Below are positions 2,789-23,606 of a stretch of 32,294 bases of DNA, in pieces. The notes below the pieces were generated by a model that saw nothing but the letters and a program-made list of their open reading frames with translations, did not search any database and had not been told where the DNA came from. Position 1 is the first letter of the stretch; each line of letters opens with the position of its first letter. This DNA comes from Phycisphaerae bacterium. GTDB taxonomy: Bacteria > Planctomycetota > Phycisphaerae > WQYP01. Location: NCBI GenBank assembly GCA_027344975.1, contig DAHWIP010000001.1, positions 1 to 32,294 of the forward strand, written 5' to 3'. The position numbers were made by a program, and so were the translations under genes.

Positions 2789-4567
2789 TTACGTGGTGCG
2801 TACGATTAATTTCTCGGGGCAGCGGAGCACCAGTCCGGGCCGCCAACGAAGCGACTTTTGAGCAAGCGCCGCATGGGGAAATCGGTGAAAAAATTCGGTC
2901 AACGCCATCTGGGCTTCGAGTTTGGCCAACATGGCTCCCAGGCAGTAGTGAATGCCGAAACCGAAGGCGATGTGGCGGTTTTCTGTGCGCTCCACGTTAA
3001 AGCGCTCCGGCTCGTCGAATACCGACGGGTCCCGGTTGGCCGCCCCGATCCCCGCCAGCACGAGGTCTCCGCGATAAATGGTACAGCCGTTCAACGTGAC
3101 ATCCGTCATGGCGACGCGGCCCGTCCACTGCACGGGGCTTTCAAACCGCAGAATCTCCTCCACGGCGCCCGCCATCGATTTTTCATCTCTCAGAGCGGCG
3201 GCCCGCTGATCCGGATGGTGCAACAGCAATAATATTCCATTGGTGATCAGACTGGTGGTGGTTTCATGCCCGGCCATCAGCAGCAGCATGCAGTTGGCGA
3301 TGAATTCCTCCTGCGGCAGTTCCGCGGCATCGCCGTCCAGAAGTGCCCCGAGCATCCCCTCCTTCGGGTTATCAGAGAGCTTCTGCTGCAGATAATCGCT
3401 GAATTCGGCGTAGGCGGCGTCGGCGCGAGTCAGATCGTCCAGCGAAGAGTGAATTCCGATGGCCGGTACCATGCGGTCCGACCATGCCGCCAATTTGGGT
3501 GCATCGTCCTGCGGCAATCCCATCATGCCGGTGATGACCATCGTGGGAAGCGGCCCGGAAAATTCTTCGATGACATCAAACCGCTCCATTGCGGCCATGC
3601 GATCGAGCAATTGATGAATCGTCATCACCAGGCGACTGCGGATGAGTTCCATGGACACAGAGTTAAATACCCGCATGAATGCCGAGCGAATCCGTGTATG
3701 GCGCGGGGGATCGGCAAAGAGCATCATGGCCGGCAGACCACGGTGACTTTCCGGTGCTCCAAGCTGACGGCGCACGGCGGCGGGAAATCCGTCGGAGATG
3801 AACGGAGCCCGGCCGAAACGAGCGTCCCTGATAATCGACTGCACATCTTTGTAATTCACCGCGACAAACGCCGGCAGCAGCGGATCAAGTGCAAAAGGCC
3901 TTTCCCGCCGCAGATAACCATACATGCGGAACGGATCGGTGCGATAGCCAGGGTGCAGCAGGCTTTTCCGGGCCAGAATTTTCCATGGGATACCGGCCAG
4001 TGAGGCGGTGGTCTTAAATGACGGAATCCGCGGCATCACCGGGCGAAACACGCTGGCCGCCTCCAGCCCCAGCGCCCAACGGCGACGCAGATTGGATTCG
4101 CGTTGCCATTTTCGCCAGCACGCCTTAAGCCGCGCCGGCGTCAGGCCATGATCGCGCATCAATTGGCCGACGGGCAGATCGCTTGCCGCGAGAGCCATCA
4201 GCAGATGCGAGGTGGAAATGTACGACCGCCCGAGCGATTCGGAGAGCAAACGGGCCTGAACCAGCAATTGCATCAGCGCTGCGGAATAATAAATGTCGTC
4301 GGCAGAACGCGCCTCACTCCGGGCAAATTCCGCCACCCGGTCCTGCAACGCCTTTATATCCGCCCCACTCCGCTTTAGCAGGTATTGGGCACCGCTGCGG
4401 GATGATCGGAGCAGGGCAAGCAGGAGATGATGAGGTTCGACACTGGATTGCCCATCGGCATATTGGGTGGCATCCTGCAGGACCAGGCGCGTCCGCGGAG
4501 GGAGCCATTCCCATAGCGGGGAAACGGATTGAAGATGCGTCGCTTTGGCCGTTTCACTTGCCGACAT
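2789..4567 (-). CDS. Cytochrome P450 with an N-terminal Clp_N (Clp R) repeat domain
   Basis: 592-aa ORF. The C-terminal ~380 aa carry P450 signatures: I-helix AGHETTT, K-helix EILRFESP and heme loop FGFGIHYCLG. The N-terminal ~170 aa carry two Clp_N-type repeats (VEPHHLLLALLRS...GADIKAL and YISTSHLLMALAAS...GLTPARL). Confidence 0.85.
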   Translation of the reverse strand: MSASETAKATHLQSVSPLWEWLPPRTRLVLQDATQYADGQSSVEPHHLLLALLRSSRSGAQYLLKRSGADIKALQDRVAEFARSEARSADDIYYSAALMQLLVQARLLSESLGRSYISTSHLLMALAASDLPVGQLMRDHGLTPARLKACWRKWQRESNLRRRWALGLEAASVFRPVMPRIPSFKTTASLAGIPWKILARKSLLHPGYRTDPFRMYGYLRRERPFALDPLLPAFVAVNYKDVQSIIRDARFGRAPFISDGFPAAVRRQLGAPESHRGLPAMMLFADPPRHTRIRSAFMRVFNSVSMELIRSRLVMTIHQLLDRMAAMERFDVIEEFSGPLPTMVITGMMGLPQDDAPKLAAWSDRMVPAIGIHSSLDDLTRADAAYAEFSDYLQQKLSDNPKEGMLGALLDGDAAELPQEEFIANCMLLLMAGHETTTSLITNGILLLLHHPDQRAAALRDEKSMAGAVEEILRFESPVQWTGRVAMTDVTLNGCTIYRGDLVLAGIGAANRDPSVFDEPERFNVERTENRHIAFGFGIHYCLGAMLAKLEAQMALTEFFHRFPHAALAQKSLRWRPGLVLRCPEKLIVRTT

Positions 4568-5176: not shown

Positions 5177-5518
5177 GTAACCAAACCTAAACCCAGTTTC
5201 ACCTCTCAACAGCGCATTATAGTTTATTCGCGGAGCCTACGCAGCCTGTGGCGTTCCGGGCGTTTTTTTGCGGCCAATATGGCGATTTTTTGCATTTTTT
5301 AACCGCCGCCTTCACAGCGCACAGCGTCGGGGAAGGGGCGACATCCACTGCGGAAGACGCCCGGGGATGAGAAAAATGGGCGACCGCCGCCATATTTTTT
5401 CAAGTAAAATTTGCGGTCGACGTATCCGCAGATTATATTTAATGTTTGTCCGCATCGCCTGGGGCCCGGACGCACCACCGTGGGAACTTTAACTCGTGCA
5501 CCCTTGGGAGGAATTTTC

Positions 5519-7588
5519 ATGAAATGTCGTGGGGTTGTTGGGCTCGCGGCTGCTGCGGCAGTCGTGGCCATGGGCGTTCACACTTCTTCGGCTACCGTCT
5601 ATACCTTTAATACCAACACCGGCGTGATGACTACCACGGGCGGTACGGCGACCGGGGGCGTGATGACGTCGGGCACTACGCCTGATGGGGAGGTGTTCGC
5701 ATTCAGTGGGAACGTGTCGTTTAATGCCGGGGATGTGATCAACGTCACCGGCTCCAGGCCCATTGTAATTTCGTCCTATAACGATATGTCTGTCGCATTG
5801 GGCGTCACCATCAATCTTTCCGCCAGTGGCACGTATGCCGGGCCGGGCGGCGGGGCTGGTGGCGTCGGGGGTAGCGGTGGTTCCGGGGGCACTGGAGGCA
5901 GTCCGCCTCTTGTCGGACCGCTGGCTGCGGTCGGGGCATTAAATGGCGGCTTCGGCGGGGCGGGAGGCGGATCATATTCCTCCGGTAGCGGCGGCCAGCC
6001 GGGCCAAAGCGGGGCCGGATTCGATGGAACCGGAGGCTCGAACGGTGCTGCGGGTACCGCGGGTTCGGCAGGCTCGGCGCCGTTTGGTGCCACGGTCACA
6101 GCGCCGGGCGGGGCCAGTGGCGGAGGGTTCGGTCAGGGCGGACTGCCTGGTGTCAACGGCCAAGCCGGGCAAGGCGGGGCAGGAGGCTCTGCAGGGTTTA
6201 CGTTAAATCCGGGTCAATTTGGCAAGAACGGGAACAATGGCGCTAATGGCGGTAACGGCATTAACGGCGGCGACGGTGGTTCTGGGGCCAATGGAGTTAA
6301 TCCTGCCTCCTTCACCTTGCTGACGGGCGGAGCTGGTGGGGCCGGTGGTGGCGGCGGCCAAGGGGGTGGTGGAGGCGGCACCGGCGGAGTTGGCGGAGGG
6401 GGAGGTGGTGGCGGTGGCGGAGCGGGATCCATCTTCGGTGGCGGCGGCTCCGGCGGTAATGGTGGCGCAGGCGGCTTGGGCGGCTCTGGCGGAGGCGGTG
6501 GAGCAGGTGGATCGGGCGGCAACGGCGGAGGCGGTGGCGGCGCCATTGAACTCTTCGCAGCCGGTCGCCTCACCGTCAACGGATCGGTTTACTCAACGGG
6601 ATCAGCTGGTAAATCCGGCACCGCTGGTGCGGGCGGATCATATGCCGGGCCGATCGGCATGGGGCTGCCCGGACAACTGGGCAATGCTGCGGCAAGTGGC
6701 AGTAATTCGGCCGCTGGCGGTCAGGGTGGGTACGGTGGGAATGGCGGCTTCGGCGGAGCGGGTGGCGGGGGCGGAGCCGGAGGGGCGGGCGGCGCCGGGG
6801 CCGGGGGCACCATCGTCCTGGCCGGCTCGTCGGTCAATGCATCCAACGGCGCATTTAATACGCTTGGCGGAGGGGATGCTTCCACCAACGGTAAATTCTT
6901 CATCGCCACCAACAGCCAGATCGCTCCCATCAAAAATGTTTTCGGCGGGCCTCCCATCTACAGCGCCGGACCGGTCGGCAATAACCCCTATATCAGCGGC
7001 ACCGCGACGCCCAATATCCCCGACTTGGCTGGCGGTGTCGCAGCCCCGTACGGCATCCTCGCCAATCTGCAGGCAAATAACCCCGCACTTTACACGCTTG
7101 CCGTCAACGCACCCTTCCATTCCCTGGCCGCTGTCCTGCTGGGCAGCAGCGGTTTGCCCGGCTATTCGGATGTCTTTCCCGGTTACCAATGGGTGTTCGT
7201 TGTCAACCTGAGCGGTTCGTCGATCAACAACCTGAAAATCGGCATCAGTTCCACTTCCACTACCTACGAGGCCGCTCTCATGCAGCAGGTCCTCTCCACG
7301 GCCGGCGGCACCATCAACGTCCAAACCGACAGCAATATTGTCCTGCCCGGAAATGATGTCTACGCTTTTCTGGCCCCGACATCACTCATTGACTCCGGCA
7401 CGCTCTACGCCACCGCGGATGGCGCCGTGCCGCTGACGATGAACTCCTATTACGGCCTGGTGACCCCCGGATTTTTCCCTGTTGAATATCTGCAATCGGC
7501 TGCGGCAACGCCCGAACCCGCCGATGGGGCCATCACTCTGGCCGCCTTGGCGGGGCTCTCACTGCTGCCCCGCCGCCGACGGACTTGA
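5519..7588 (+). CDS. Very large glycine-rich (PGRS-like GGX repeat) secreted protein with C-terminal PEP-CTERM sorting signal
   Basis: The track ORF is 5411..7588. ATG 5519 is preceded by GGGAGGA and gives the signal peptide MKCRGVVGLAAAAAVVAMGVHTSSA. The central ~330 aa are almost pure GGxGG/GGNGG repeats. The C-terminus TPEPADGAITLAALAGLSLLPRRRRT has the PEP motif, a TM helix and an Arg cluster. Confidence 0.8.
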   Translation: MKCRGVVGLAAAAAVVAMGVHTSSATVYTFNTNTGVMTTTGGTATGGVMTSGTTPDGEVFAFSGNVSFNAGDVINVTGSRPIVISSYNDMSVALGVTINLSASGTYAGPGGGAGGVGGSGGSGGTGGSPPLVGPLAAVGALNGGFGGAGGGSYSSGSGGQPGQSGAGFDGTGGSNGAAGTAGSAGSAPFGATVTAPGGASGGGFGQGGLPGVNGQAGQGGAGGSAGFTLNPGQFGKNGNNGANGGNGINGGDGGSGANGVNPASFTLLTGGAGGAGGGGGQGGGGGGTGGVGGGGGGGGGGAGSIFGGGGSGGNGGAGGLGGSGGGGGAGGSGGNGGGGGGAIELFAAGRLTVNGSVYSTGSAGKSGTAGAGGSYAGPIGMGLPGQLGNAAASGSNSAAGGQGGYGGNGGFGGAGGGGGAGGAGGAGAGGTIVLAGSSVNASNGAFNTLGGGDASTNGKFFIATNSQIAPIKNVFGGPPIYSAGPVGNNPYISGTATPNIPDLAGGVAAPYGILANLQANNPALYTLAVNAPFHSLAAVLLGSSGLPGYSDVFPGYQWVFVVNLSGSSINNLKIGISSTSTTYEAALMQQVLSTAGGTINVQTDSNIVLPGNDVYAFLAPTSLIDSGTLYATADGAVPLTMNSYYGLVTPGFFPVEYLQSAAATPEPADGAITLAALAGLSLLPRRRRT

Positions 7589-7875: not shown

Positions 7876-8418
7876 TTAATGTTTTTCGGATTTGACTTTC
7901 CGTTCACCAGCTCGCTGCCAGGAATCCTTAACGGCTGGCTTGGCATGTTCCCAAGCCAATGTCGAAGTCCCGTGGCGGGAATTCCAATCTTGGGCGAGTT
8001 TCGATTCATGTTCCTCGAATGTACCTTCAACGTTACCTGTGCGAGATTCCCAGCCATATTGGTAGGCTGGTCCGTACTGCTCGTAACCGGTTCCCTTTTT
8101 TACGTACGGCCGTGTCTCAAAAACTGAACGCCAGTAACCATGCTCTACCGTCGGATCAATTTTCTCGGCAACGGCTTTACCCGCCAAGCCACCGACCAAC
8201 CCGCCGACAACGGCGCCGGTCACTCCGCCGACGACCGTTCCCACCGGTCCGGCAACTGTCCCGACCGTGGCGCCAACAGCCACGCCTCCCACCACGCCAC
8301 CAGCCACGGCTCCAACACCGGTCCCGACGGGGTGTGAACCGGGCTCGCCGGTAATAGCGTCACAGTTCGCATCGTCTTTCGACTTTTTTATTTCTTCGGT
8401 TTCATTACGATTATTCAC
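7876..8418 (-). CDS. Glycine-zipper membrane protein with conserved C-terminal Trp/Tyr-rich stress-protein-like domain
   Basis: 180-aa ORF with a GTG start 7 nt after AGGAG. The central segment GTGVGAVAGGVVGGVAVGATVGTVAGPVGTVVGGVTGAVVGGLVGGLAG is a glycine zipper. The C-terminal HGYWRSVFETRPY...YGPAYQYGWE...LAWEHAKPAVKDSWQR resembles a widespread uncharacterised domain. It is preceded by a sigma-54 promoter match. Confidence 0.75.
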   Translation of the reverse strand: MNNRNETEEIKKSKDDANCDAITGEPGSHPVGTGVGAVAGGVVGGVAVGATVGTVAGPVGTVVGGVTGAVVGGLVGGLAGKAVAEKIDPTVEHGYWRSVFETRPYVKKGTGYEQYGPAYQYGWESRTGNVEGTFEEHESKLAQDWNSRHGTSTLAWEHAKPAVKDSWQRAGERKVKSEKH

Positions 8419-8504
8419 AAGACAACTCCTGAAAATTTGAGATTAACCCAGCCCAGCGTCCCACAGATTAAATCCATAAAGAGACGCGTGCCATCCGCTT
8501 CATA

Positions 8505-8520
8505 TGCAAAGGGTGTACCA
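8505..8520 (-). promoter_or_regulatory. Sigma-54 (-24/-12) promoter match, drives glycine-zipper gene
   Basis: The minus strand reads TGGTACACCCTTTGCA, with GG-N10-GC spacing as in the consensus TGGCAC-N5-TTGCW. It is intergenic, about 87 nt upstream of the GTG start at 8418. Confidence 0.6.
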
Positions 8521-8772
8521 CGCGACGAATATTGCCCTGTCGGCTGAGGACTTTTTGCGGGCTTAGGGAATAGACGCCCGATCCTACCTCCACAGCCTGA
8601 TGTCGATATTTTGACGCACATCAGTGTCGCGCCAGCTGCGGCTCACATCATCTGAACCGCCCTTAAACCCGCGATTTCTAAGCCTCAGCGCTCGATGATT
8701 CTTTATTCGCTAATTCCCGCCAGGCAATCCGAAATACTTACTGAAGTGAACCGACGCGGTCGAAATTACCTC

Positions 8773-9119
8773 AGATATTTTATCATCTATACGCCCGTTA
8801 TTTTTCCCGATGGGGAGGAGGAGGATCGGCACCAACTGGACGGCATTTAGGCCACGGTGGACAAATTGACGCGGGCGTTTTGTCCGACGAAGCCCATATT
8901 CTCCCTTCGATACGCACCACCACCGCGGAATTGTCAGCTATTTTCTGTACGGCACGGGGATTGCGTGAGAAAAGGTTCGGGTGGTGAAATGTCGTCCGAG
9001 CGCCGATTAATCCGCCCGGATTGCATACACACGGGAAGCATATATGTCCGATACAGTGCCGCAGCAGCTTGGCAATAATTCAACATTAACGGAATCATTT
9101 GAGCTCTACGAGCAGATCA
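8773..9119 (+). repeat. Copy A of a paralogous regulatory module (upstream blocks + sigma-54 promoter + 5' UTR + first ~25 codons)
   Basis: It aligns without net gaps to 20827..21175. Shared blocks are AGATATTTTAT, TGGACGGCA, A(T/A)TGACGCGGGC(G/A)TTTTG, ACGGCAC(G/A)GGGATTGC, GGTGGTG(A/C)AATGTCG and the ATATG start. Confidence 0.75.
8950..8965 (+). promoter_or_regulatory. Sigma-54 (-24/-12) promoter match, drives GGDEF gene
   Basis: CGGCACGGGGATTGCG with canonical GG-N10-GC spacing. It lies 79 nt upstream of ATG 9044 and is conserved in the paralogous copy at 21004..21019. Confidence 0.65.
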
Positions 9120-9982
9120 GAACACGCACAGAGGCTCGTGCCCGTGAAGTGTCGGCCATCAATGAGGCATTTAAGGATAAACTCAGGGAGTGCGACTCGC
9201 AGGAAGGCGTGCGTGAGGCGATCATCTGGGGCCGGCGCATTGACGATATGCTTCTCAAATGTCTCGATGATTTAAGTTTAGTTCAGACCGCCTTGCTGGC
9301 GGAAATAGTCAAACGCCGGACGCTGGAACGCAAATTGTCCCTCAGCGAAACTCTATGCGATAAACACCTGCAAAGGGCGTTGCATGACGACCTGACCGGG
9401 CTGCCCAATCGAGCGCTCTTCAAAGATCGGCTCCAGAAAGCCTGCGTACAGGCGAGGCGCCATGAACGGCGATTTGCGGTAATGCTTATTGACATTGATG
9501 CCTTTAAAAGTATTAACGATGTGCATGGCCATGACATGGGCGACAAAGTGCTGAATCTGGTCGGGTGGCGCCTCCAAGCTTCTCTGCGAGAGGAGGACAC
9601 TGTCGCCCGCGTCGGCGGAGATGAATTCCAATGCCTGCTAATGGAAGCCAAGGATGAGGCCGTCATTGCCAAGATCGCAAAATGCATGATCACCCGCGCT
9701 GCGGGTGCCGCCGGTCAGACGGGCTTGCGTGCAAAACTGAAACTGAGCATCGGCATCGCCCTTTACCCGCTGGCTGGAACGAGCCCCGACGCTCTGTGTC
9801 GGCATGCCGATGCCGCCATGTATGCGGCAAAGGCCGCCGGCACTGGTTATCAGTTCTGGAGCGATGTTGAGTCGCGCGAATCCTCGGGTTGGAAAGAGGC
9901 GCCGCGGTCCGCTGACACGGCCGAAGTCCGCAAGACGCTGCATATTTCCGGCGAATCGTCCGGCCGGGACGGCATTGGATGA
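9044..9982 (+). CDS. Diguanylate cyclase (GGDEF domain) with coiled-coil-like N-terminus
   Basis: 312-aa ORF with LTGLPNRALF, DIDAFKSINDVHGH and the active site GGDEF. An RxxD I-site (REED) lies 5 residues upstream of GGDEF. No recognisable sensor domain. Confidence 0.9.
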   Translation: MSDTVPQQLGNNSTLTESFELYEQIRTRTEARAREVSAINEAFKDKLRECDSQEGVREAIIWGRRIDDMLLKCLDDLSLVQTALLAEIVKRRTLERKLSLSETLCDKHLQRALHDDLTGLPNRALFKDRLQKACVQARRHERRFAVMLIDIDAFKSINDVHGHDMGDKVLNLVGWRLQASLREEDTVARVGGDEFQCLLMEAKDEAVIAKIAKCMITRAAGAAGQTGLRAKLKLSIGIALYPLAGTSPDALCRHADAAMYAAKAAGTGYQFWSDVESRESSGWKEAPRSADTAEVRKTLHISGESSGRDGIG

Positions 9983-10697: not shown

Positions 10698-11150
10698 GAT
10701 AAACACCCCTTTTTCCGGACAACATGGGCCGCCTGTCATGAGAAATGGGTCATCCGCGGAGGCCCGTAATAATTTGGCTCAGGCTGGTGGTTGCCCGGAC
10801 CTGAAGGGCATCGGAGCGATCCGTTTCGCGCACTGCCGACAGGGCAGGCACCATTAATCGCGCGACATGTCGTGCGATATCAATACGCGCACGATTCATA
10901 TTGTAGGCACCGATCCGGTGCCCGGATGGCTATAATTGACAATTATTGACTTTCGCAACGTGTGCTCTCGCCGGGACAAACCCGCTTCTGCTGCAAACGG
11001 CCCGACTCACAGGCACCCCAGGCTCTGCCCCAAAGGTGCCCGGCGCCATTATGGCCCGCACAAGACACAACGGCCCGGACAAACTGACAAAATAATATCG
11101 CTAAATCGGCGTCTATTACCGGAAAACGGCGAATGACAGAAATATCGGCC

Positions 11151-11166
11151 TGGCACGGCAATTGCA
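11151..11166 (+). promoter_or_regulatory. Sigma-54 (-24/-12) promoter, drives DUF3309 gene
   Basis: TGGCACGGCAATTGCA is a near-perfect match to TGGCACG-N4-TTGCA. It is intergenic, 121 nt upstream of ATG 11287. Confidence 0.75.
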
Positions 11167-11286: not shown

Positions 11287-11445
11287 ATGGGCCTGATCAT
11301 CATTGCACTACTGGTTATTCTGCTGCTCGCAAGTCTGCCTACTTGGGGGTACAGCAACAAGTGGGGTTACGGTCCGACCGGCGGGATGTTTTTCCTGCTG
11401 GTCATCGTCATCGTGCTGCTTGTCATGGGTGTGATTCCGCGGTAA
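11287..11445 (+). CDS. DUF3309 family small membrane protein
   Basis: ATG 11287 follows AAGGAG. The 52-aa product MGLIIIALLVILLLASLPTWGYSNKWGYGPTGGMFFLLVIVIVLLVMGVIPR has the WGYS..WGYGP signature of DUF3309 between two TM helices. Confidence 0.75.
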   Translation: MGLIIIALLVILLLASLPTWGYSNKWGYGPTGGMFFLLVIVIVLLVMGVIPR

Positions 11446-12721: not shown

Positions 12722-13037
12722 CCCGCCTCCGATTGGTGAAAGCAAAAACTCATGCCAAAGAATATTTTCCGTTATCTGAAGTGGCTCCCCGGCGGAGGTT
12801 TTCGACCCGTCGCGCATCTTCGTTGCCGCAGAGCACGGTGGAGCGTGTTGCAGGCCAGATTATTCACCAAGCACGCCAGCCCGCGAAAGATCAAGATTGC
12901 TTCATATGACAGAAACCCGTATACTCCAGATTATATCCGGCGTCAATTTATTGGTTGGGTTTTCACCCTGACCTCTGAATGGATGCATGGGTGTAATGTG
13001 TGGTGCCAACGGCGCCAAACGTTTAGGATACCTCAAC

Positions 13038-14519
13038 ATGATGAGCCCCGATCAATACGAGATTCTGGTAATCGAGGACAATCCAACACAGCGATCTGCC
13101 CTCGAGCAAGTTCTCACGGAGGCCGGATATAACGTCAAAACCACTAATTCGGTCGAGAAGGCGTTGAATTTTGTGCAGGAGGGGATTGACTGCGTGGTGG
13201 CCGGGGTGGTCTCGGGAGATATCTCCCGACTGGATATCGTCAAGCAATGGAAGAAACATTTTCCAGATACGCCCCTGCCGGTCATAAAGGAATCGCAGTC
13301 CGTCATGTCGCTTCTTGAAATGGTCAGCACGGGCCGGCTTGGCGACAAGGACGGAATTGAGACCATTACCGAGGCCAAACACCTTCTTCAAAAGCTCATG
13401 CAGTTGGTCCACGCCTGCCAACAAGATCAGAAGATAAAAGATATCGCCTTCCCCGCCGACGGCACCAGTGATGGTCTCATCGGTGCCACGCCGATCATGA
13501 AGAGCATTATGCAGAGGATACATCGGTCCAGTGCCGCCCAGAGCACCGTTTTGGTAACGGGTGAATCTGGAACCGGCAAGGATCTCGCGGCACGGGCCAT
13601 TCACCGACACTCGGCCCGAAAGGACGGCCCCTTCATCGCGATCAATTGTGCTGCGATGCCTGAAGCTTTGGTGGAAAGCGAACTCTTCGGTTACGACAAG
13701 GGTGCTTTTACCGGTGCCTTGGATAAACGGATCGGGAGATTCGAGGCGGCTCATAACGGAACCTTGTTTATTGATGAAATTGGAGATTGCGCCCTGCCGG
13801 TTCAGGCAAAGCTCCTGCGGATTCTGGAAAATCGCGTCGTGACGCCACTGGGCGGCCAACGTGAGGTCAAGGTCGATACCCGCGTGATTGTCGCCACGAG
13901 CCGCGACCTTCCCGCGATGGTCAACAGCCGCGAGTTCAGGGAGGATCTTTTTTACCGGCTGAACATTATCAACATTATCATGCCGCCGCTTCGAGAACGT
14001 GCAGAAGATATACCGTTGCTCGTGGCGGCATTTATTCACCGCATCAATGAACAGAATAATTGGGCCGTTGATTCCATTTCAGCCGACGCGCTCGATGCGC
14101 TGCAACACTACCCATGGCCGGGGAATATCCGGCAATTGCTCAATGTCATCGAGCAGATCATCGTCCTCGCCGACCGCGATAAGACCGTCATCAGCCTGGG
14201 CGATCTTCCGGAGGTCTTTCGTACCACCGGCCAGTCCCCGTCGGAATCGGTACACAGCATCCCGCCCGGCAGTGATCCGAAATTTTCGCATAGCGCTACA
14301 CCACCGCGTCACGATCGCCGTGCGACCGACGTTGACGGCCCGCTGCTGACATTGGATCAACTTGAGAAGAGAACCATTGAAAAGGCGATGTCGCGTTTCG
14401 GCAATAACAAAACCAAAGCGGCGCAAGCCATTGGAATCAGTGTGCGAACCCTGCAACGAAAACTCAGTGAGAGCACATCCCCGCCGTTGGTGTTGCTGCG
14501 CACGGAATCGAAAGCCTGA
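13038..14519 (+). CDS. Sigma-54-dependent transcriptional activator (NtrC family bEBP) with degenerate receiver domain
   Basis: The track ORF starts at 12987; ATG 13038 (MMSPDQYEILVIEDN) is likelier. The AAA+ core has Walker A GESGTGKD and the sigma-54 contact loop GAFTGA. The C-terminal Fis-type HTH reads NKTKAAQAIGISVRTLQRKL. The N-terminal REC-like fold has IDCVVAGVVSGD where DxxxxD is expected. Confidence 0.9.
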   Translation: MMSPDQYEILVIEDNPTQRSALEQVLTEAGYNVKTTNSVEKALNFVQEGIDCVVAGVVSGDISRLDIVKQWKKHFPDTPLPVIKESQSVMSLLEMVSTGRLGDKDGIETITEAKHLLQKLMQLVHACQQDQKIKDIAFPADGTSDGLIGATPIMKSIMQRIHRSSAAQSTVLVTGESGTGKDLAARAIHRHSARKDGPFIAINCAAMPEALVESELFGYDKGAFTGALDKRIGRFEAAHNGTLFIDEIGDCALPVQAKLLRILENRVVTPLGGQREVKVDTRVIVATSRDLPAMVNSREFREDLFYRLNIINIIMPPLRERAEDIPLLVAAFIHRINEQNNWAVDSISADALDALQHYPWPGNIRQLLNVIEQIIVLADRDKTVISLGDLPEVFRTTGQSPSESVHSIPPGSDPKFSHSATPPRHDRRATDVDGPLLTLDQLEKRTIEKAMSRFGNNKTKAAQAIGISVRTLQRKLSESTSPPLVLLRTESKA

Positions 14520-14818: not shown

Positions 14819-14834
14819 TGGCACCAGTTTTGCA
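14819..14834 (+). promoter_or_regulatory. Sigma-54 (-24/-12) promoter, drives PEP-CTERM ice-binding-like gene
   Basis: TGGCACCAGTTTTGCA is a near-perfect consensus match. It is intergenic, 135 nt upstream of GTG 14969. Confidence 0.75.
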
Positions 14835-19631: not shown

Positions 19632-20471
19632 TCACGATTTGCGGCGGCGTACGAAAAACAATGGTACTACCCCGGCCATTGCGAGAGCGGAGGACGCGGG
19701 CTCAGGTGTGGCAATGCCAGTGGGCACCACGGTTGAAATGGTATTGTCATTGAGCATGTCGAAATTCGCCACTGCATTGGCAGAGAGCGTGAGGACAACC
19801 TTTGAATCTATCGTGAACAAATCACCCGGTGACAATACAAGGGTACTCGCAGACGCTTTTGCACCCACCGAAAACGGCGTCGAACTGGCGTTGTAGGTGC
19901 CTGAGGAATAGGAAATCTGGGCGGAGGAACCGTTTGAGGTGTCCGGCGTTGCCGTGGTGGTGAATACGAACGTGGCGGCACCCGCGCCAATTTCGCCGCC
20001 GAAGCTTTCCTGCGCGTTATACAACTCGCTGCTCAGCGATCCACTGGCGACGAAGCCGGTATCCCGAATGTCGATTGCCAAAGTCTGAGTCCTCCCGGTT
20101 GTATTCGTGATGTTGACCGCATTGGCGTTGATACTGTTGCCACCTGACAGTTTGCTGTAGATGCTTGACGCACCAGCGACATTCACCGTCACGCCATTGC
20201 TGCTCGCATTCTGTAACTGAAACGAGCTACCGGAGCTGAATATCTGCGGGTTACTCGATCCGATGGTAACCGTCAATTCAGGCAATGCTTGTACGGTGGC
20301 GGGAATTGCCGCCATCGCCGCGATGGCAACAAATGCGCCGGCCGTGATCATCTTCCTCGTCTGCCCTGATGCAAACATTGCAGATCGCCCCGGACTTCCG
20401 ACGGCGACATCATGGTTCGCATCGGGTCGCGACCTTCCTTTATTTTCGTCGATTTCCAAATGGTTCTTCAC
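19632..20471 (-). CDS. Ser/Thr-rich secreted protein with PEP-CTERM sorting signal
   Basis: The track ORF runs to 20747, but that would lie upstream of the predicted promoter. Candidate starts are GTG 20471 (7 nt after AGGAG), ATG 20378 and ATG 20351 (MITAGAFVAIAAMAAIPATVQA signal). The C-terminus is ATPEPASSALAMAGVVPLFFVRRRKS. Confidence 0.75.
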   Translation of the reverse strand: MKNHLEIDENKGRSRPDANHDVAVGSPGRSAMFASGQTRKMITAGAFVAIAAMAAIPATVQALPELTVTIGSSNPQIFSSGSSFQLQNASSNGVTVNVAGASSIYSKLSGGNSINANAVNITNTTGRTQTLAIDIRDTGFVASGSLSSELYNAQESFGGEIGAGAATFVFTTTATPDTSNGSSAQISYSSGTYNASSTPFSVGAKASASTLVLSPGDLFTIDSKVVLTLSANAVANFDMLNDNTISTVVPTGIATPEPASSALAMAGVVPLFFVRRRKS

Positions 20472-20557
20472 AACACTACTCCTGAAAACATGGTGTAAAC
20501 GTGGTCGTGCGCCCACGGATTTGATCCATAAAAAAACGCCGGACGCCACACCCTCTA

Positions 20558-20573
20558 TGCAATTGGGAGGCCA
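20558..20573 (-). promoter_or_regulatory. Sigma-54 (-24/-12) promoter match, drives PEP-CTERM gene pair
   Basis: The minus strand reads TGGCCTCCCAATTGCA with correct GG-N10-GC spacing and -12 AATTGCA. It is intergenic, upstream of all plausible starts of the 19632.. gene. Confidence 0.55.
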
Positions 20574-20826
20574 ATCGGTGAAGATATCGCAACCACCCGG
20601 GCCGGTTTGCTTGGCCAGCGAAATAAAATCCGCAGAATTCTGCAACAGGCCGGAGCCGGCGCTGTGACGATGGGTTACTCGGGGCAAACTACCCGCTAAA
20701 TCGCCATAAATGCCGATATATCGGTGTTCTACAGGGCTCAGCCACATATGGAACTTTGGCTTGTGACAACAGCCTGAGACGGCAGGTGCAGGCGCGATCG
20801 CGAAGCAACGCGATTGAAACTACCAG

Positions 20827-21175
20827 AGATATTTTATTATCGATACACCCGTCATTTGCTTTTAGGAGGAGGCGTGCTCTCGGCTCCTATTGGACGGCAC
20901 TTTTGCCGCTACGGCCAAAATGACGCGGGCATTTTGACTTAAGGAGAGCCCACTTTCGCGTCGGCATAGAGCGCCATGGCGAAAACGCGAGTACCCTCTT
21001 AAACGGCACAGGGATTGCACCAGCAGATACTCAGGTGGTGCAATGTCGCCTGAACGTCCGTTGAATCGCCCGAATGGTAAGGGCACAGGAAGTAAATATG
21101 GCTGATGCGATGCAGCGGTGGGGTATAGGCGGCAATTCCACATCATCGGAGATGGGCGAACACATAAGGAAGCTG
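20827..21175 (+). repeat. Copy B of the paralogous regulatory module (see 8773..9119)
   Basis: Same block order as copy A and identical distances. The first block lies 177 nt before the promoter and 271 nt before the ATG in both copies. Confidence 0.75.
21004..21019 (+). promoter_or_regulatory. Sigma-54 (-24/-12) promoter match (paralog of 8950..8965)
   Basis: CGGCACAGGGATTGCA with canonical spacing, 79 nt upstream of ATG 21098. Confidence 0.65.
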
Positions 21176-21346
21176 GCGGCGGCAGGTCATCCAGAAATTT
21201 GGTCGCGATTGATGGTCAATACCTTTACCACCACTTTTACGGTCGATGATCGTCCCATGTTGTTACGACAAGATTGCCGGAATGCCCGTATACCGCCGAA
21301 GTTCTCCACAAAACTGGCGTCAGTGGCTATTTTCGCATTCAAATGA
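21098..21346 (+). CDS. 82-aa ORF paralogous to the N-terminus of the GGDEF protein (small paralog or gene remnant)
   Basis: MADAMQRWGIGGNSTSSEMGEHIRKL... aligns with MSDTVPQQLGNNSTLTESFELYEQIR... of the 9044 gene. Later, EIWSRL...DDRPMLLRQDC aligns with IIWGRRIDDMLLKCLDD. No GGDEF domain follows. Coding status is uncertain. Confidence 0.3.
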   Translation: MADAMQRWGIGGNSTSSEMGEHIRKLAAAGHPEIWSRLMVNTFTTTFTVDDRPMLLRQDCRNARIPPKFSTKLASVAIFAFK

Positions 21347-21564
21347 CTGCCCGTAGATTATCTGTTGCGGGAGAAATGACTCTACTTGAACAATCGGTCG
21401 GAGAAATTTTATTTACCTCACCGGAGCCGAAAACGGCATTGGGGCAGCGATGGCGGCATTAAGCCTTCTTACGAATTCATCAGGCTGTTTACGGCGCGAA
21501 GCCATCCGGGCGGCACGGCGCCGGATTCATTTTTTGAATGTGGTGATTACTTGAGGGTGAATTA

Positions 21565-23256
21565 ATGAAAGGGGCGCCATTTATCCAGCCCAATGACCCA
21601 TCGGGGCGTAGGGCATTGAATTTTTCAGTACGACTCTGGTTCCTGATTATCGTTACCGGCATTGGCGCCGGATCAGGAGCATCATTGCTTATGGCATTAC
21701 TGGGGGCGGTGCAGCATTGGTGCTATTCCTACAGTAAGGGTGATTTTCAGCACGCGGCGGAGCTCGTGTCGCCTTGGCGGCATATCTGGATTATGGCGAC
21801 TGCGGGCCTGCTTGCGACCGGAGTGATCTGGTTCTTGAAGCATCACTGGCCCGGTAAGGACAGCGACATCCCGAAATCAATTTGGTTCAGGTCGGGGCAT
21901 CTGCCTTTCATTCGCACCATGATCGATGGGGCGCTGGCCATGACTATTGTGGGTATGGGAGCCTCGCTTGGCCGGGAAGGTGCACCGAAGCAGGTGGGCG
22001 CCGCCATTGCCGGCGTGCTTTCCGGATGGACAAAATTGGAACCTGCGGAGACCCGATTCTTAGTCGCCTGCGGTGCCGGTGCGGGTATGGGGGCTGTCTA
22101 TAATGTACCGCTTGGCGGAGCGCTGTTTACACTTGAGATACTGCTGGGAACCATGGCATTACCATTGATCCTGCCCGCGATTACCGCATCCTACGTGGCC
22201 ACCGCGGTTTCGTGGGTAACACTTCCAAATCGCGCCACCTATCGGGTGCCCCATTACCATTTTGTCGTGGGACAACTGCTCTGGGCGATGGTTTTCGGCC
22301 CTCTGGCTGGCATTGCGTCCGTATTATTCGTGCGATTGATTATTTACGCGGGTAGGCATAAGCCAAAAAGGGGCTGGTCCATACTGGCACCGCTTCCGGT
22401 GTTCACGTTACTGGGATGTGTGGCTATCGCATTTCCGCAATTGTTGGGTAACGGGAAAGATGTCACCGAATTGGCGTTTACGCATAAACTGGCCGTACCC
22501 CTGCTACTGGTGCTGATCTTCCTAAAACCACTGGCCACGTCAGGTTGCCTGGGCAGTGGGGCACCGGGCGGTCTTTTTACCCCGACCATTACCGTCGGAG
22601 CCGTGTTCGGAGGATTTTTCGGCCATCTATGGTCGCTGATTTGGCCGGGCGCAACGCCGGGAAGCTATGCCGTCATTGGGGCCGGTGCGGCATTGGCTGC
22701 AACCACGCAGGCCCCGCTCTCATCCATCGTTTTGCTGCTCGAGCTGACGCATCATACTCTGGGGATCTTGGTTCCGATTCTATCCGCCGTGGTCACCGCG
22801 ACCATAACGTCACGGTTGCTGGATCGTCGATCGCTCTACTCCGGGCCGATCAACGCGATTCGCCCGGCGATAGGAATAGCAAGATCAGCCCCGCCGATGT
22901 CATATCAAGCGGGCATCTGTTCGGACATTAATGTCATCTCGATATCTGCCAGTTACCAGGCAATTCTCCGGCGATTTTCCGGCTCGCTTGGCAGGCCAAC
23001 CATTCTGTACGTATTGGATGAAAATGGAGCGTTCGTCGGTCGTATCCGGCAGTCGGACCTGAACGCGTGTCGACCATTGGCCCGCGTTCTGAATATCGGT
23101 GCGGCCGCTGATATGGTGCACCCCGTGACATGCCTGCTTACGTCAATGCCCCTGCACGACGTCCAGCAGCTACTGGCTTGCGAGCCTGATGGAGAACTGC
23201 CCGTTGTCGATGCTGCCAGCGGCAACCTGTTCGGAGTGACGCGCCGAAAGGTATAA
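21565..23256 (+). CDS. ClC-family chloride channel / Cl-/H+ antiporter with C-terminal CBS pair
   Basis: 563-aa ORF with GREGAPKQVG (gating-Glu motif) and GSGAPGGLFTPTITVGA (GxFxP motif). It has many TM helices and a C-terminal ~130-aa CBS-like region (...ILYVLDENGAFVGRI..., ...ELPVVDAASGNLFGV...). Confidence 0.9.
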   Translation: MKGAPFIQPNDPSGRRALNFSVRLWFLIIVTGIGAGSGASLLMALLGAVQHWCYSYSKGDFQHAAELVSPWRHIWIMATAGLLATGVIWFLKHHWPGKDSDIPKSIWFRSGHLPFIRTMIDGALAMTIVGMGASLGREGAPKQVGAAIAGVLSGWTKLEPAETRFLVACGAGAGMGAVYNVPLGGALFTLEILLGTMALPLILPAITASYVATAVSWVTLPNRATYRVPHYHFVVGQLLWAMVFGPLAGIASVLFVRLIIYAGRHKPKRGWSILAPLPVFTLLGCVAIAFPQLLGNGKDVTELAFTHKLAVPLLLVLIFLKPLATSGCLGSGAPGGLFTPTITVGAVFGGFFGHLWSLIWPGATPGSYAVIGAGAALAATTQAPLSSIVLLLELTHHTLGILVPILSAVVTATITSRLLDRRSLYSGPINAIRPAIGIARSAPPMSYQAGICSDINVISISASYQAILRRFSGSLGRPTILYVLDENGAFVGRIRQSDLNACRPLARVLNIGAAADMVHPVTCLLTSMPLHDVQQLLACEPDGELPVVDAASGNLFGVTRRKV

Positions 23257-23590: not shown

Positions 23591-23606
23591 CGGCACGGTA
23601 ATTGCA
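23591..23606 (+). promoter_or_regulatory. Sigma-54 (-24/-12) promoter match, drives hydrophilic disordered protein gene
   Basis: CGGCACGGTAATTGCA with canonical spacing and -12 AATTGCA, 107 nt upstream of ATG 23713. Confidence 0.65.

Follow-up and report, generated by a model that had tools for sequence, protein, structure and literature searches.

Two related, probably bidirectional sigma-54 control regions in a Phycisphaerae bacterium, with a putative activator site at constant spacing from one promoter

We analyzed a 32,294-nt stretch of DNA (the window) from a Phycisphaerae bacterium of the Planctomycetota (GenBank assembly GCA_027344975.1, contig DAHWIP010000001.1, positions 1 to 32,294 of the forward strand), in which two related regions, here termed modules A (8773 to 9119) and B (20827 to 21173), lie 12 kb apart on the same strand. 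Module A is flanked on the minus strand by a gene for a 180-amino acid (aa) glycine-zipper protein and on the plus strand by one for a GGDEF diguanylate cyclase. Module B has a PEP-CTERM protein gene on its minus-strand side and, on its plus-strand side, an 82-aa open reading frame (ORF), whose first ~25 codons resemble the GGDEF N terminus, followed by a ClC channel gene. In each copy, the elements come in the same order: a minus-strand sigma-54 promoter, an AT-rich block (block 1), an activator-site region, a 65-nt spacer, and a plus-strand sigma-54 promoter. The gene for a candidate sigma-54 activator is located between the two copies.

Aligned without gaps at an offset of 12054, copies A and B show 57% identity over 347 nt, against a null distribution, generated by sliding the same 347-mer along both strands of the rest of the window, with a mean of 25.1%, a standard deviation of 2.4%, and a best other placement of 35%; BLAST recovers the similarity with E = 3.6e-17. 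Ungapped identity rises to 65% over 8747 to 9046, and the alignment runs from ~8747 to 9052 without a single gap; past the ATG it requires gaps of 3 and 9 nt. An earlier reading of the letters alone (the sequence-only reading) had proposed two paralogous modules of about 350 nt that align without net gaps; the similarity is real, but the unit proves to be larger and bidirectional. It measures ~780 nt (about 8340 to 9120 in A and 20395 to 21175 in B) and comprises the whole divergent intergenic region together with the opening ~25 codons of each flanking gene, past which these genes are unrelated. The intergenic regions (8419 to 9043 and 20473 to 21097) are 625 nt each and were aligned with only three 1-nt gaps. 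In the minus-strand genes too, the similarity extends ~25 codons inward, and a repeat detected in the window (D6) takes in their start codons and ribosome-binding sites (RBS). The shared blocks named in the earlier reading were all found in place: besides block 1, these are TGGACGGCA (8837 to 8845 and 20891 to 20899) and TGACGCGGGC (8867 to 8876 and 20921 to 20930). The ATGs (9044 and 21098) lie exactly 271 nt from block 1 in both copies, as had been read, and the sigma-54 box is equally distant from block 1 in A and B, although its ACGGCAC starts 176 nt, not 177 nt, after the first base of that block. Two same-strand copies 12 kb apart could also be expected of a mobile element, of the kind of a miniature inverted-repeat transposable element, or of a dispersed repeat family. 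We give this virtually no credence: a profile of the core found only two copies per genome among all fetched DNA, terminal inverted repeats and target duplications were not found, the edges of the unit are inside coding sequence, and the copies occupy syntenic positions in relatives.

The plus-strand promoters match GGCAC-N5-TTGC exactly (8951 to 8964 in A and 21005 to 21018 in B), and the minus-strand promoter of A does so with one mismatch (Table 1). The ATG comes 93 nt after the GGCAC in both copies. The activator-site region consists of GGACGGCAYTT (block 2) plus an imperfect palindrome with the consensus GGACAAAATG-ACGCGGG-CATTTTGTCC, whose center (8872 in A) is ~104 nt upstream of the predicted plus-strand transcription start; the minus-strand start of A was placed from its -12 element. 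Block 2, which contains a half-site-like sequence, is a probable accessory activator site, and block 1 may serve for DNA bending or in an accessory role; no consensus for the integration host factor (IHF) was seen by eye in block 1 or in the spacer.

Table 1. Coordinates of the predicted elements of modules A and B and of associated genes in the window
Feature	Position	Strand	Sequence or remark	Basis
Module A, left edge	8340..8418	-	Initial ~26 codons of the glycine-zipper gene (180 aa; 7876-8418, start GTG at 8418)	Alignment, repeat D6, translation
Module A, predicted 5′ untranslated region (UTR) of minus-strand gene	8419..8495	-	RBS AGGAG within 8425-8435; small hairpin 8463-8477	Conserved in A, B, and orthologs
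Module A, minus-strand sigma-54 promoter	8505..8520	-	TGGTACACCCTTTGCA	Conserved in L026, L027, L005, L042, L043
Module A, block 1	8773..8803	.	AT-rich, AGATATTTTATCATCTATACGCCCGTTATTT	80% identical, A versus B
Module A, block 2	8838..8853	.	GGACGGCATTTAGGCC (GGACGGCAYTT...GCC); contains half-site-like GGCATTTAGGCC	Related sequence at the same place in L042, L043
Module A, core upstream activator site (predicted)	8859..8885	.	Imperfect palindrome GGACAAATTG-ACGCGGG-CGTTTTGTCC	Most conserved element in all orthologs
Module A, spacer	8886..8950	.	65 nt	Length conserved, sequence not
Module A, plus-strand sigma-54 promoter	8950..8965	+	CGGCACGGGGATTGCG	Motif match
GGDEF diguanylate cyclase gene behind A plus promoter	9044..9982	+	Only first ~25 codons in repeat	Pfam GGDEF, E = 6.7e-46
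Module B, left edge	20395..20472	-	Glycine-zipper N-terminus remnant VKNHLEIDENKGRSRPDANHD, in frame with PEP-CTERM gene (19632-20472; ORF open to 20747)	Translations, alignment
Module B, minus-strand sigma-54 promoter	20558..20573	-	TGGCCTCCCAATTGCA	GG and GC at canonical spacing
Module B, block 1	20827..20857	.		Alignment to A
Module B, block 2	20892..20907	.	GGACGGCACTTTTGCC	Alignment to A
Module B, core upstream activator site (predicted)	20913..20939	.	GGCCAAAATG-ACGCGGG-CATTTTGACT	Conservation
Module B, spacer			65 nt, between palindrome and plus promoter	
Module B, plus-strand sigma-54 promoter	21004..21019	+	CGGCACAGGGATTGCA	Motif match
Genes behind B plus promoter	21098..23256	+	82-aa chimeric ORF (21098-21346); ClC channel gene (21565-23256)	
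Candidate sigma-54 activator (bacterial enhancer-binding protein)	12987..14519	+	Receiver domain, AAA+ sigma-54 interaction domain with GAFTGA, Fis-type helix-turn-helix (HTH)	Pfam, sequence
DUF3309 gene (11287-11445) promoter	11077..11166	+	Half-site GGACAAACTGAC 75 nt from GGCAC of TGGCACGGCAATTGCA	

Divergence between the copies is high (43% mismatches) and strongly patterned, with 85% identity in the promoters, the core, and GGTGGTG.AATGTCG versus 50% in the stretches between them. Three indel events accompany ~396 substitutions, compared with 0.04 indels per substitution in other intergenic DNA of the lineage, a deficit that is the weaker evidence because aligners under-call indels at such divergence. 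The middle of the module, earlier described as poorly conserved with its length kept, indeed keeps its length, but its sequence is still 50 to 55% identical in register. These patterns bear on whether copy B might be an inert leftover of a segmental duplication, its similarity and equal lengths reflecting too little time for divergence. Such a leftover would fit the chimeric look of the 82-aa ORF. It would also fit block 1, the 5′ UTR, and the initial 25 codons, which A and B have in common with each other and not with distant orthologs. Both the patterning and the indel deficit speak against it, however, as does a related genome in which the core and minus promoter of B are kept (76% over 563 nt) and the core is reused with another sigma-54 promoter, so that we rate an inert B as very unlikely. 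Much of the A/B similarity is nevertheless inheritance, because distant orthologs do not share the three stretches just named. The matching 5′ UTR, ATG distance, and ~25 codons had been put forward as conserved; they are so between A and B, where they reflect common descent by duplication.

Orthologous loci allowed the durable elements to be separated from the merely inherited ones. The sister genome GCA_049965755.1 (loci L026 and L029) has a syntenic contig of ~88% DNA identity (87% for L026 in the phylogenetic footprint), and the GGDEF protein occurs on contigs of Phycisphaerae metagenome-assembled genomes. More distant loci were found via the GGDEF protein (L027, 58%; L042, 47%), the glycine-zipper protein (L005, 58%), and the activator (L043, 65%). 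Persisting in the orthologs are the RBS of the minus-strand gene, its small leader hairpin, both sigma-54 promoters, block 2, and the palindrome, the last conserved mostly in its left arm and center. Block 1 is weak or absent in L027, L005, L042, and L043 and is kept only among close relatives, and neither the plus-strand 5′ UTR nor the intervening DNA is conserved in the distant orthologs. Block 1, from which the sequence-only reading had measured its distances, is accordingly an anchor shared by A and B that does not last; the lasting one is block 2 with the palindrome.

The left edge of the palindrome is 92 nt from the GGCAC in A, B, and L027, 93 nt in L026 and L042, and 91 nt in L043 and L005. 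Across eight diverged sequences this distance, taken from the left arm, stays at 91 to 93 nt with spacers of 64 to 66 nt, and the 60 nt of spacer nearest the promoter are only 20 to 40% identical among distant sequences, which is close to random. Total intergenic length varies (385 nt in L042 and shorter in L005), and the minus promoter is anywhere between 110 and 360 nt from the palindrome across orthologs; it is thus the interval between the site and the plus promoter that is constrained. The sequence-only reading had centrally predicted this, namely, an upstream site at a fixed distance across a sequence-free spacer, and its general proposal of noncoding, paralogous sigma-54 modules with an upstream enhancer site is sustained by the survival of the promoters and core at 47 to 65% protein identity. 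The leader hairpin mentioned above lies in the minus-strand 5′ UTR (8463 to 8477 and 20515 to 20529, both on the minus strand, and ~6492 to 6506 in L043), reads AUGGAU-UUA-AUCUGU in A, and is kept in all orthologs. In L005 its closing U-A pair is C-G, elsewhere some G.U pairs have become G-C, and the L043 version, ATGGAT-GTA-ATCCAT, pairs perfectly; only the minus-strand transcript can form the G.U pairs.

We further evaluated whether the blocks might specify a short peptide or a structured RNA, be it a leader, a riboswitch, or a small RNA. A hairpin with 10-bp arms can be drawn, one frame is similar in the two copies when read by hand (SAPTGRH... versus SAPIGRH...), and block 1, again read by hand, resembles a -35/-10 pair with a 15-nt spacer. 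The blocks are, however, upstream of a sigma-54 promoter, Rfam returned no family at threshold anywhere in the window, and the core consensus folds at only -2.9 kcal/mol with no covariation: in eight sequences, compensatory change occurs in 0 of the 10 stem pairs, and 25% of the cells are broken. An RNA or peptide function is hence highly improbable in our estimation. The short hairpin thought to present a conserved loop is better taken as an imperfect DNA dyad, in which substitutions break pairs and never compensate. That the conservation is not protein coding holds, in that ORFs exist at 8857 to 9078 (plus strand) and 20862 to 21146 (minus strand) and none is conserved. The candidate peptide, SAP(T/I)GRH...GQ(I/N)DAG, has no conserved start or RBS, and by hand comparison it is not kept beyond the DNA block in L027 and L005. 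The sigma-70 candidate that block 1 offers (TTGAAA-15 nt-TATTAT) falls short of the 16- to 18-nt spacer range and was not called by the scan, which called no sigma-70-like promoters or terminators inside the A blocks or the reported part of B; three terminator-like matches in B (20495 to 20645) are situated between the minus-gene start and block 1.

The candidate activator encoded between the copies has a Sigma54_activat domain (E = 4.7e-67), an HTH_8 domain (E = 3.3e-13), and the GAFTGA motif in its translation. Its gene is syntenic in L026, L029, and L030. L043 has a 65% identical ortholog, from which the glycine-zipper and GGDEF genes of the module A ortholog are ~1.1 and ~2.3 kb away, respectively. 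The orthologs form a clear group at ≥55% identity, after which identity drops to 46%; compared with the PrsR, ZraR, and NtrC equivalogs, the protein is none of these. The window has no evident histidine kinase gene, and the activator may respond to an input other than a classical phosphorelay. Searching the window with the half-site 12-mer GGCATTTTGTCC (≤2 mismatches) gave 12 matches, compared with 4.35 ± 2.06 in shuffles (shuffle maximum, 9). Six of these are in the modules, and three more are intergenic (11077, 14601, and 14615), all of them upstream of other sigma-54 promoters. This recurrence supports a predicted local regulon. In L005, the plus promoter of the module drives a DUF3309 gene, the family that has its own half-site and promoter in the window. 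Further exact GGCAC-N5-TTGC matches occur at 11151 to 11166 (DUF3309), 14819 to 14834 (a PEP-CTERM ice-binding-like gene), and 23591 to 23606 (a 157-aa ORF), and at least seven sigma-54 promoters lie within 16 kb around the one activator gene.

The direction of the duplication can be read from the left gene of B. Its PEP-CTERM ORF carries, in frame and ahead of the signal peptide, the remnant VKNHLEIDENKGRSRPDANHD of the N terminus of the A gene (VNNRNETEEIKKSKDDANCD), and paralogous PEP-CTERM proteins of 237 to 254 aa have no such extension; hence, B was copied from A. The loci of these paralogs (L032 to L036) show no similarity to the module. The sister genome is devoid of the 2.6-kb window segment 20937 to 23534, i.e., the B spacer, plus promoter, 82-aa ORF, and ClC gene, and its B palindrome is joined directly to the ortholog of the window promoter at 23591 to 23606, at 108 nt. 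The arrangement resembles a natural exchange of the promoter that follows an activator site. Block 2 and the palindrome of the sister-genome B (L029, 5408 to 5484) are nearer to window A (8820 to 8885; 85.7% over 77 nt) than to window B, which could be due to gene conversion between the copies or to strong constraint on the site. In a comparison with L030, the PEP-CTERM protein (19632 to 20472) is 78% identical to its counterpart P0123, module B is 98.5% identical, and the whole 8.4-kb locus is 95.7% identical; by these figures, the divergence is localized in the PEP-CTERM surface-protein gene.

We consider it probable that each copy is a bidirectional, activator-dependent sigma-54 control region, that its core is a site for an NtrC-family activator at a fixed distance from the plus promoter, and that B was duplicated from A. 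The product of 12987 to 14519 is most likely the cognate activator. The homology, promoter motifs, conserved elements, fixed spacing, and gene neighborhoods are observations; protein binding, the identity of the activator, looping, and the inducing signal are inferred. RNA polymerase with sigma-54 would occupy the -24/-12 elements of both strands in each copy, and the NtrC-family activator would bind block 2 and the imperfect palindrome, loop over the fixed-length spacer, and open the plus promoter using ATP. The same site might also serve the minus promoter. Copy B arose from copy A through a duplication of ~0.8 kb, which would have brought the ClC gene, the small ORF, and the PEP-CTERM surface-protein gene under the regulation that acts on the glycine-zipper stress protein and GGDEF cyclase genes at A.

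Several observations weigh against this interpretation. The rearranged B of the sister genome has a spacing of 108 nt, a core-like site in L044 (CGACAATATGACGCCGC), 7 kb from an activator ortholog, is 107 nt from TGGCAAGGGGATTGCA, and the half-site of the DUF3309 promoter is at 75 nt. Strict helical phasing, as proposed in the sequence-only reading, is consequently unproven, since these distances differ from 92 nt by 15 to 17 nt rather than by whole helical turns; the fixed length itself stands. A grid of half-sites 16 to 17 nt apart, which would reconcile the 75-, 92-, and 108-nt classes, was considered and rejected, as L044 has no second half-site where one was predicted. The right arm of the palindrome is weak in L005 and in the Victivallis locus described below, which is atypical of a simple dyad site, and the minus promoter, given its varying distance, may use another site. 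The activator is assigned through its gene neighborhood only, its receiver-domain match is partial and weak (33 bits; profile positions 1 to 85 of 111), and rpoN is not within the 32-kb window.

Comparison with characterized systems places the modules close to, without merging them with, several of these. Classical sigma-54 promoters (NtrC at glnAp2, NifA at nifH, and PspF at pspA) share with them the -24 GG and -12 GC, a dyad-type site ~100 nt upstream, a constraint on spacer length over spacer sequence, and a nearby NtrC-family activator with GAFTGA and a Fis-type HTH. Unlike those systems, the present one belongs to a Phycisphaerae planctomycete, shows no IHF consensus in the spacer by eye, and has a weak right dyad arm; to our knowledge, the motif GGACAAAATGACGCGG... 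matches no site of the NtrC, NifA, and PspF systems. In the zraP-zraSR region of Escherichia coli, two divergent sigma-54 promoters similarly surround the site of an activator (ZraR), and the genes are stress related. However, the activator described here scores 311.6 bits against a ZraR equivalog cutoff of 760, its gene is not one of the two divergent genes, and the site is asymmetric, with 65 nt from its right edge to the plus GGCAC and 110 to 360 nt from its near edge to the -24 GG of the minus promoter. The third relative is the PEP-CTERM box of the PrsK-PrsR-PrsT system, whose 17-nt motif 1, detected solely in Proteobacteria, terminates in TTTACA and has a mean spacer of 62.8 nt (Haft et al. 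2006, PMC1569441). Both combine long noncoding regions with a sigma-54 site before PEP-CTERM genes and a near-constant distance (65 nt here), but only one of the four genes driven here encodes a PEP-CTERM protein. Membership in the PEP-CTERM box/PrsR regulon was rejected, as there is no TTTACA upstream of the module promoters and the activator scores 314.9 bits against a PrsR (TIGR02915) cutoff of 502.6. TTTACA occurs seven times in the window, and the only occurrence within a module (20494 to 20499, minus strand) is in the minus-strand 5′ UTR of B. Overall, this is a new case of a known kind of switch, an activator-dependent sigma-54 promoter, with a putative binding motif that seems undescribed.

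To look for the module beyond its lineage, metagenomes were scanned with a strict three-block pattern, which gave no matches, and with a second pattern consisting of the core followed by GGCAC-N5-TTGC within 59 to 89 nt. The latter recovered one soil contig at a deviant distance and four human gut contigs with a single locus (L037, L039, L040, and L041). In this locus 91 nt separate the 16-mer GGACAAAATGACGCGG from the GGCAC of TTGGCACGCCCTTTGCT, and the gene immediately downstream, which starts with MSKILGVDLGTTNSCMAV, codes for an Hsp70 (910 bits), i.e., dnaK; exact look-up of the neighboring proteins identified the organism as Victivallis (Lentisphaerota). It counts against this match that it came from a motif-conditioned search, for which we estimate ~0.5 loci by chance. 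A chance site is nonetheless judged unlikely because an intergenic position, the orientation, an extended promoter consensus, and an in-family distance are combined in it, and the locus suggests that dnaK of a gut lentisphaerotan may depend on sigma-54. Scanning representative genomes with the 180-aa protein recovered only distant homologs (≤58%), with coding but no intergenic similarity. Several glycine-zipper homologs (L005, L007, L011 to L013, L016, L017, and L024) from Planctomycetota and Thermoanaerobaculia/Acidobacteriota have a sigma-54-like site ~115 to 150 nt upstream of the start, and sigma-54 seems to have targeted this gene family repeatedly in different phyla.

The site at dnaK fits predicted sigma-54 control of chaperones: a recent survey describes sigma-54 promoters predicted in silico before dnaK, grpE, groEL, and ibpA, enriched in Planctomycetota and with a smaller signal in Phycisphaerae (PLoS One 2025, PMC12316311). 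The survey deals with promoters only, and searching its text for "upstream activat" returned no match. We tentatively raise the possibility, which we hold with less confidence than the control-region model itself and at below even chances, that GGACAAAATGACGCGG held 91 to 93 nt upstream of the -24 element could be the signature of an undescribed heat-shock-like stress regulon, driven by a sigma-54 activator and shared across the phyla of the Planctomycetota-Verrucomicrobiota-Chlamydiota (PVC) group. It would comprise dnaK in Victivallis and, in Phycisphaerae, the genes for the glycine-zipper stress protein, DUF3309, a cyclic di-GMP synthase, the PEP-CTERM protein, and the ClC channel, and it would grow by copying or rejoining whole promoter cassettes.

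The Victivallis locus also raises the alternative that the 16-mer and palindrome are the operator of some other DNA-binding protein, such as a stress-gene repressor or a nucleoid or bending protein, with the true activator site elsewhere. Heat-shock operators have an architecture of inverted arms, and inverted arms around a 7- to 9-nt center upstream of the Victivallis chaperone gene resemble them; the better conservation of the palindrome center than of the right arm points the same way. Against this, activator sites typically lie where this one does, ~104 nt before the start and at a constant spacing from the -24 element, operators instead overlapping promoters. Half-sites moreover turn up ahead of other sigma-54 promoters close to the activator gene, which itself remains in the neighborhood of the modules. 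An operator is thus an unlikely explanation, though the least unlikely of the alternatives weighed here, and we retain the activator site as the better account of the core.

Two other genes of the window deserve record. A 592-aa ORF at 2789 to 4567 (minus strand) combines a Clp_N-like N terminus with a cytochrome P450 domain, an unusual pairing that the sister genome has as well. A 725-aa, very glycine-rich ORF at 5411 to 7588 (plus strand), immediately to the left of module A, contains the GGxGG-type repeat families D1 to D4 and has no Pfam match.

Gene regulation in Planctomycetota and Lentisphaerota is experimentally almost unexplored, and for the predicted chaperone sigma-54 promoters of these phyla we found no assigned activator site or activator. 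The locus offers a testable triplet of a motif, a candidate activator gene, and a spacing rule of 91 to 93 nt. Nature here further provides a clean case of a regulon growing through the duplication of a complete bidirectional promoter cassette, complemented by the sister genome, in which the activator site was rejoined to a different sigma-54 promoter after a 2.6-kb deletion; the regulon thus appears to grow by duplicating or rejoining promoter cassettes. If the link to Victivallis dnaK is true, a sigma-54-based stress response would be common to PVC phyla, including a common human gut bacterium.

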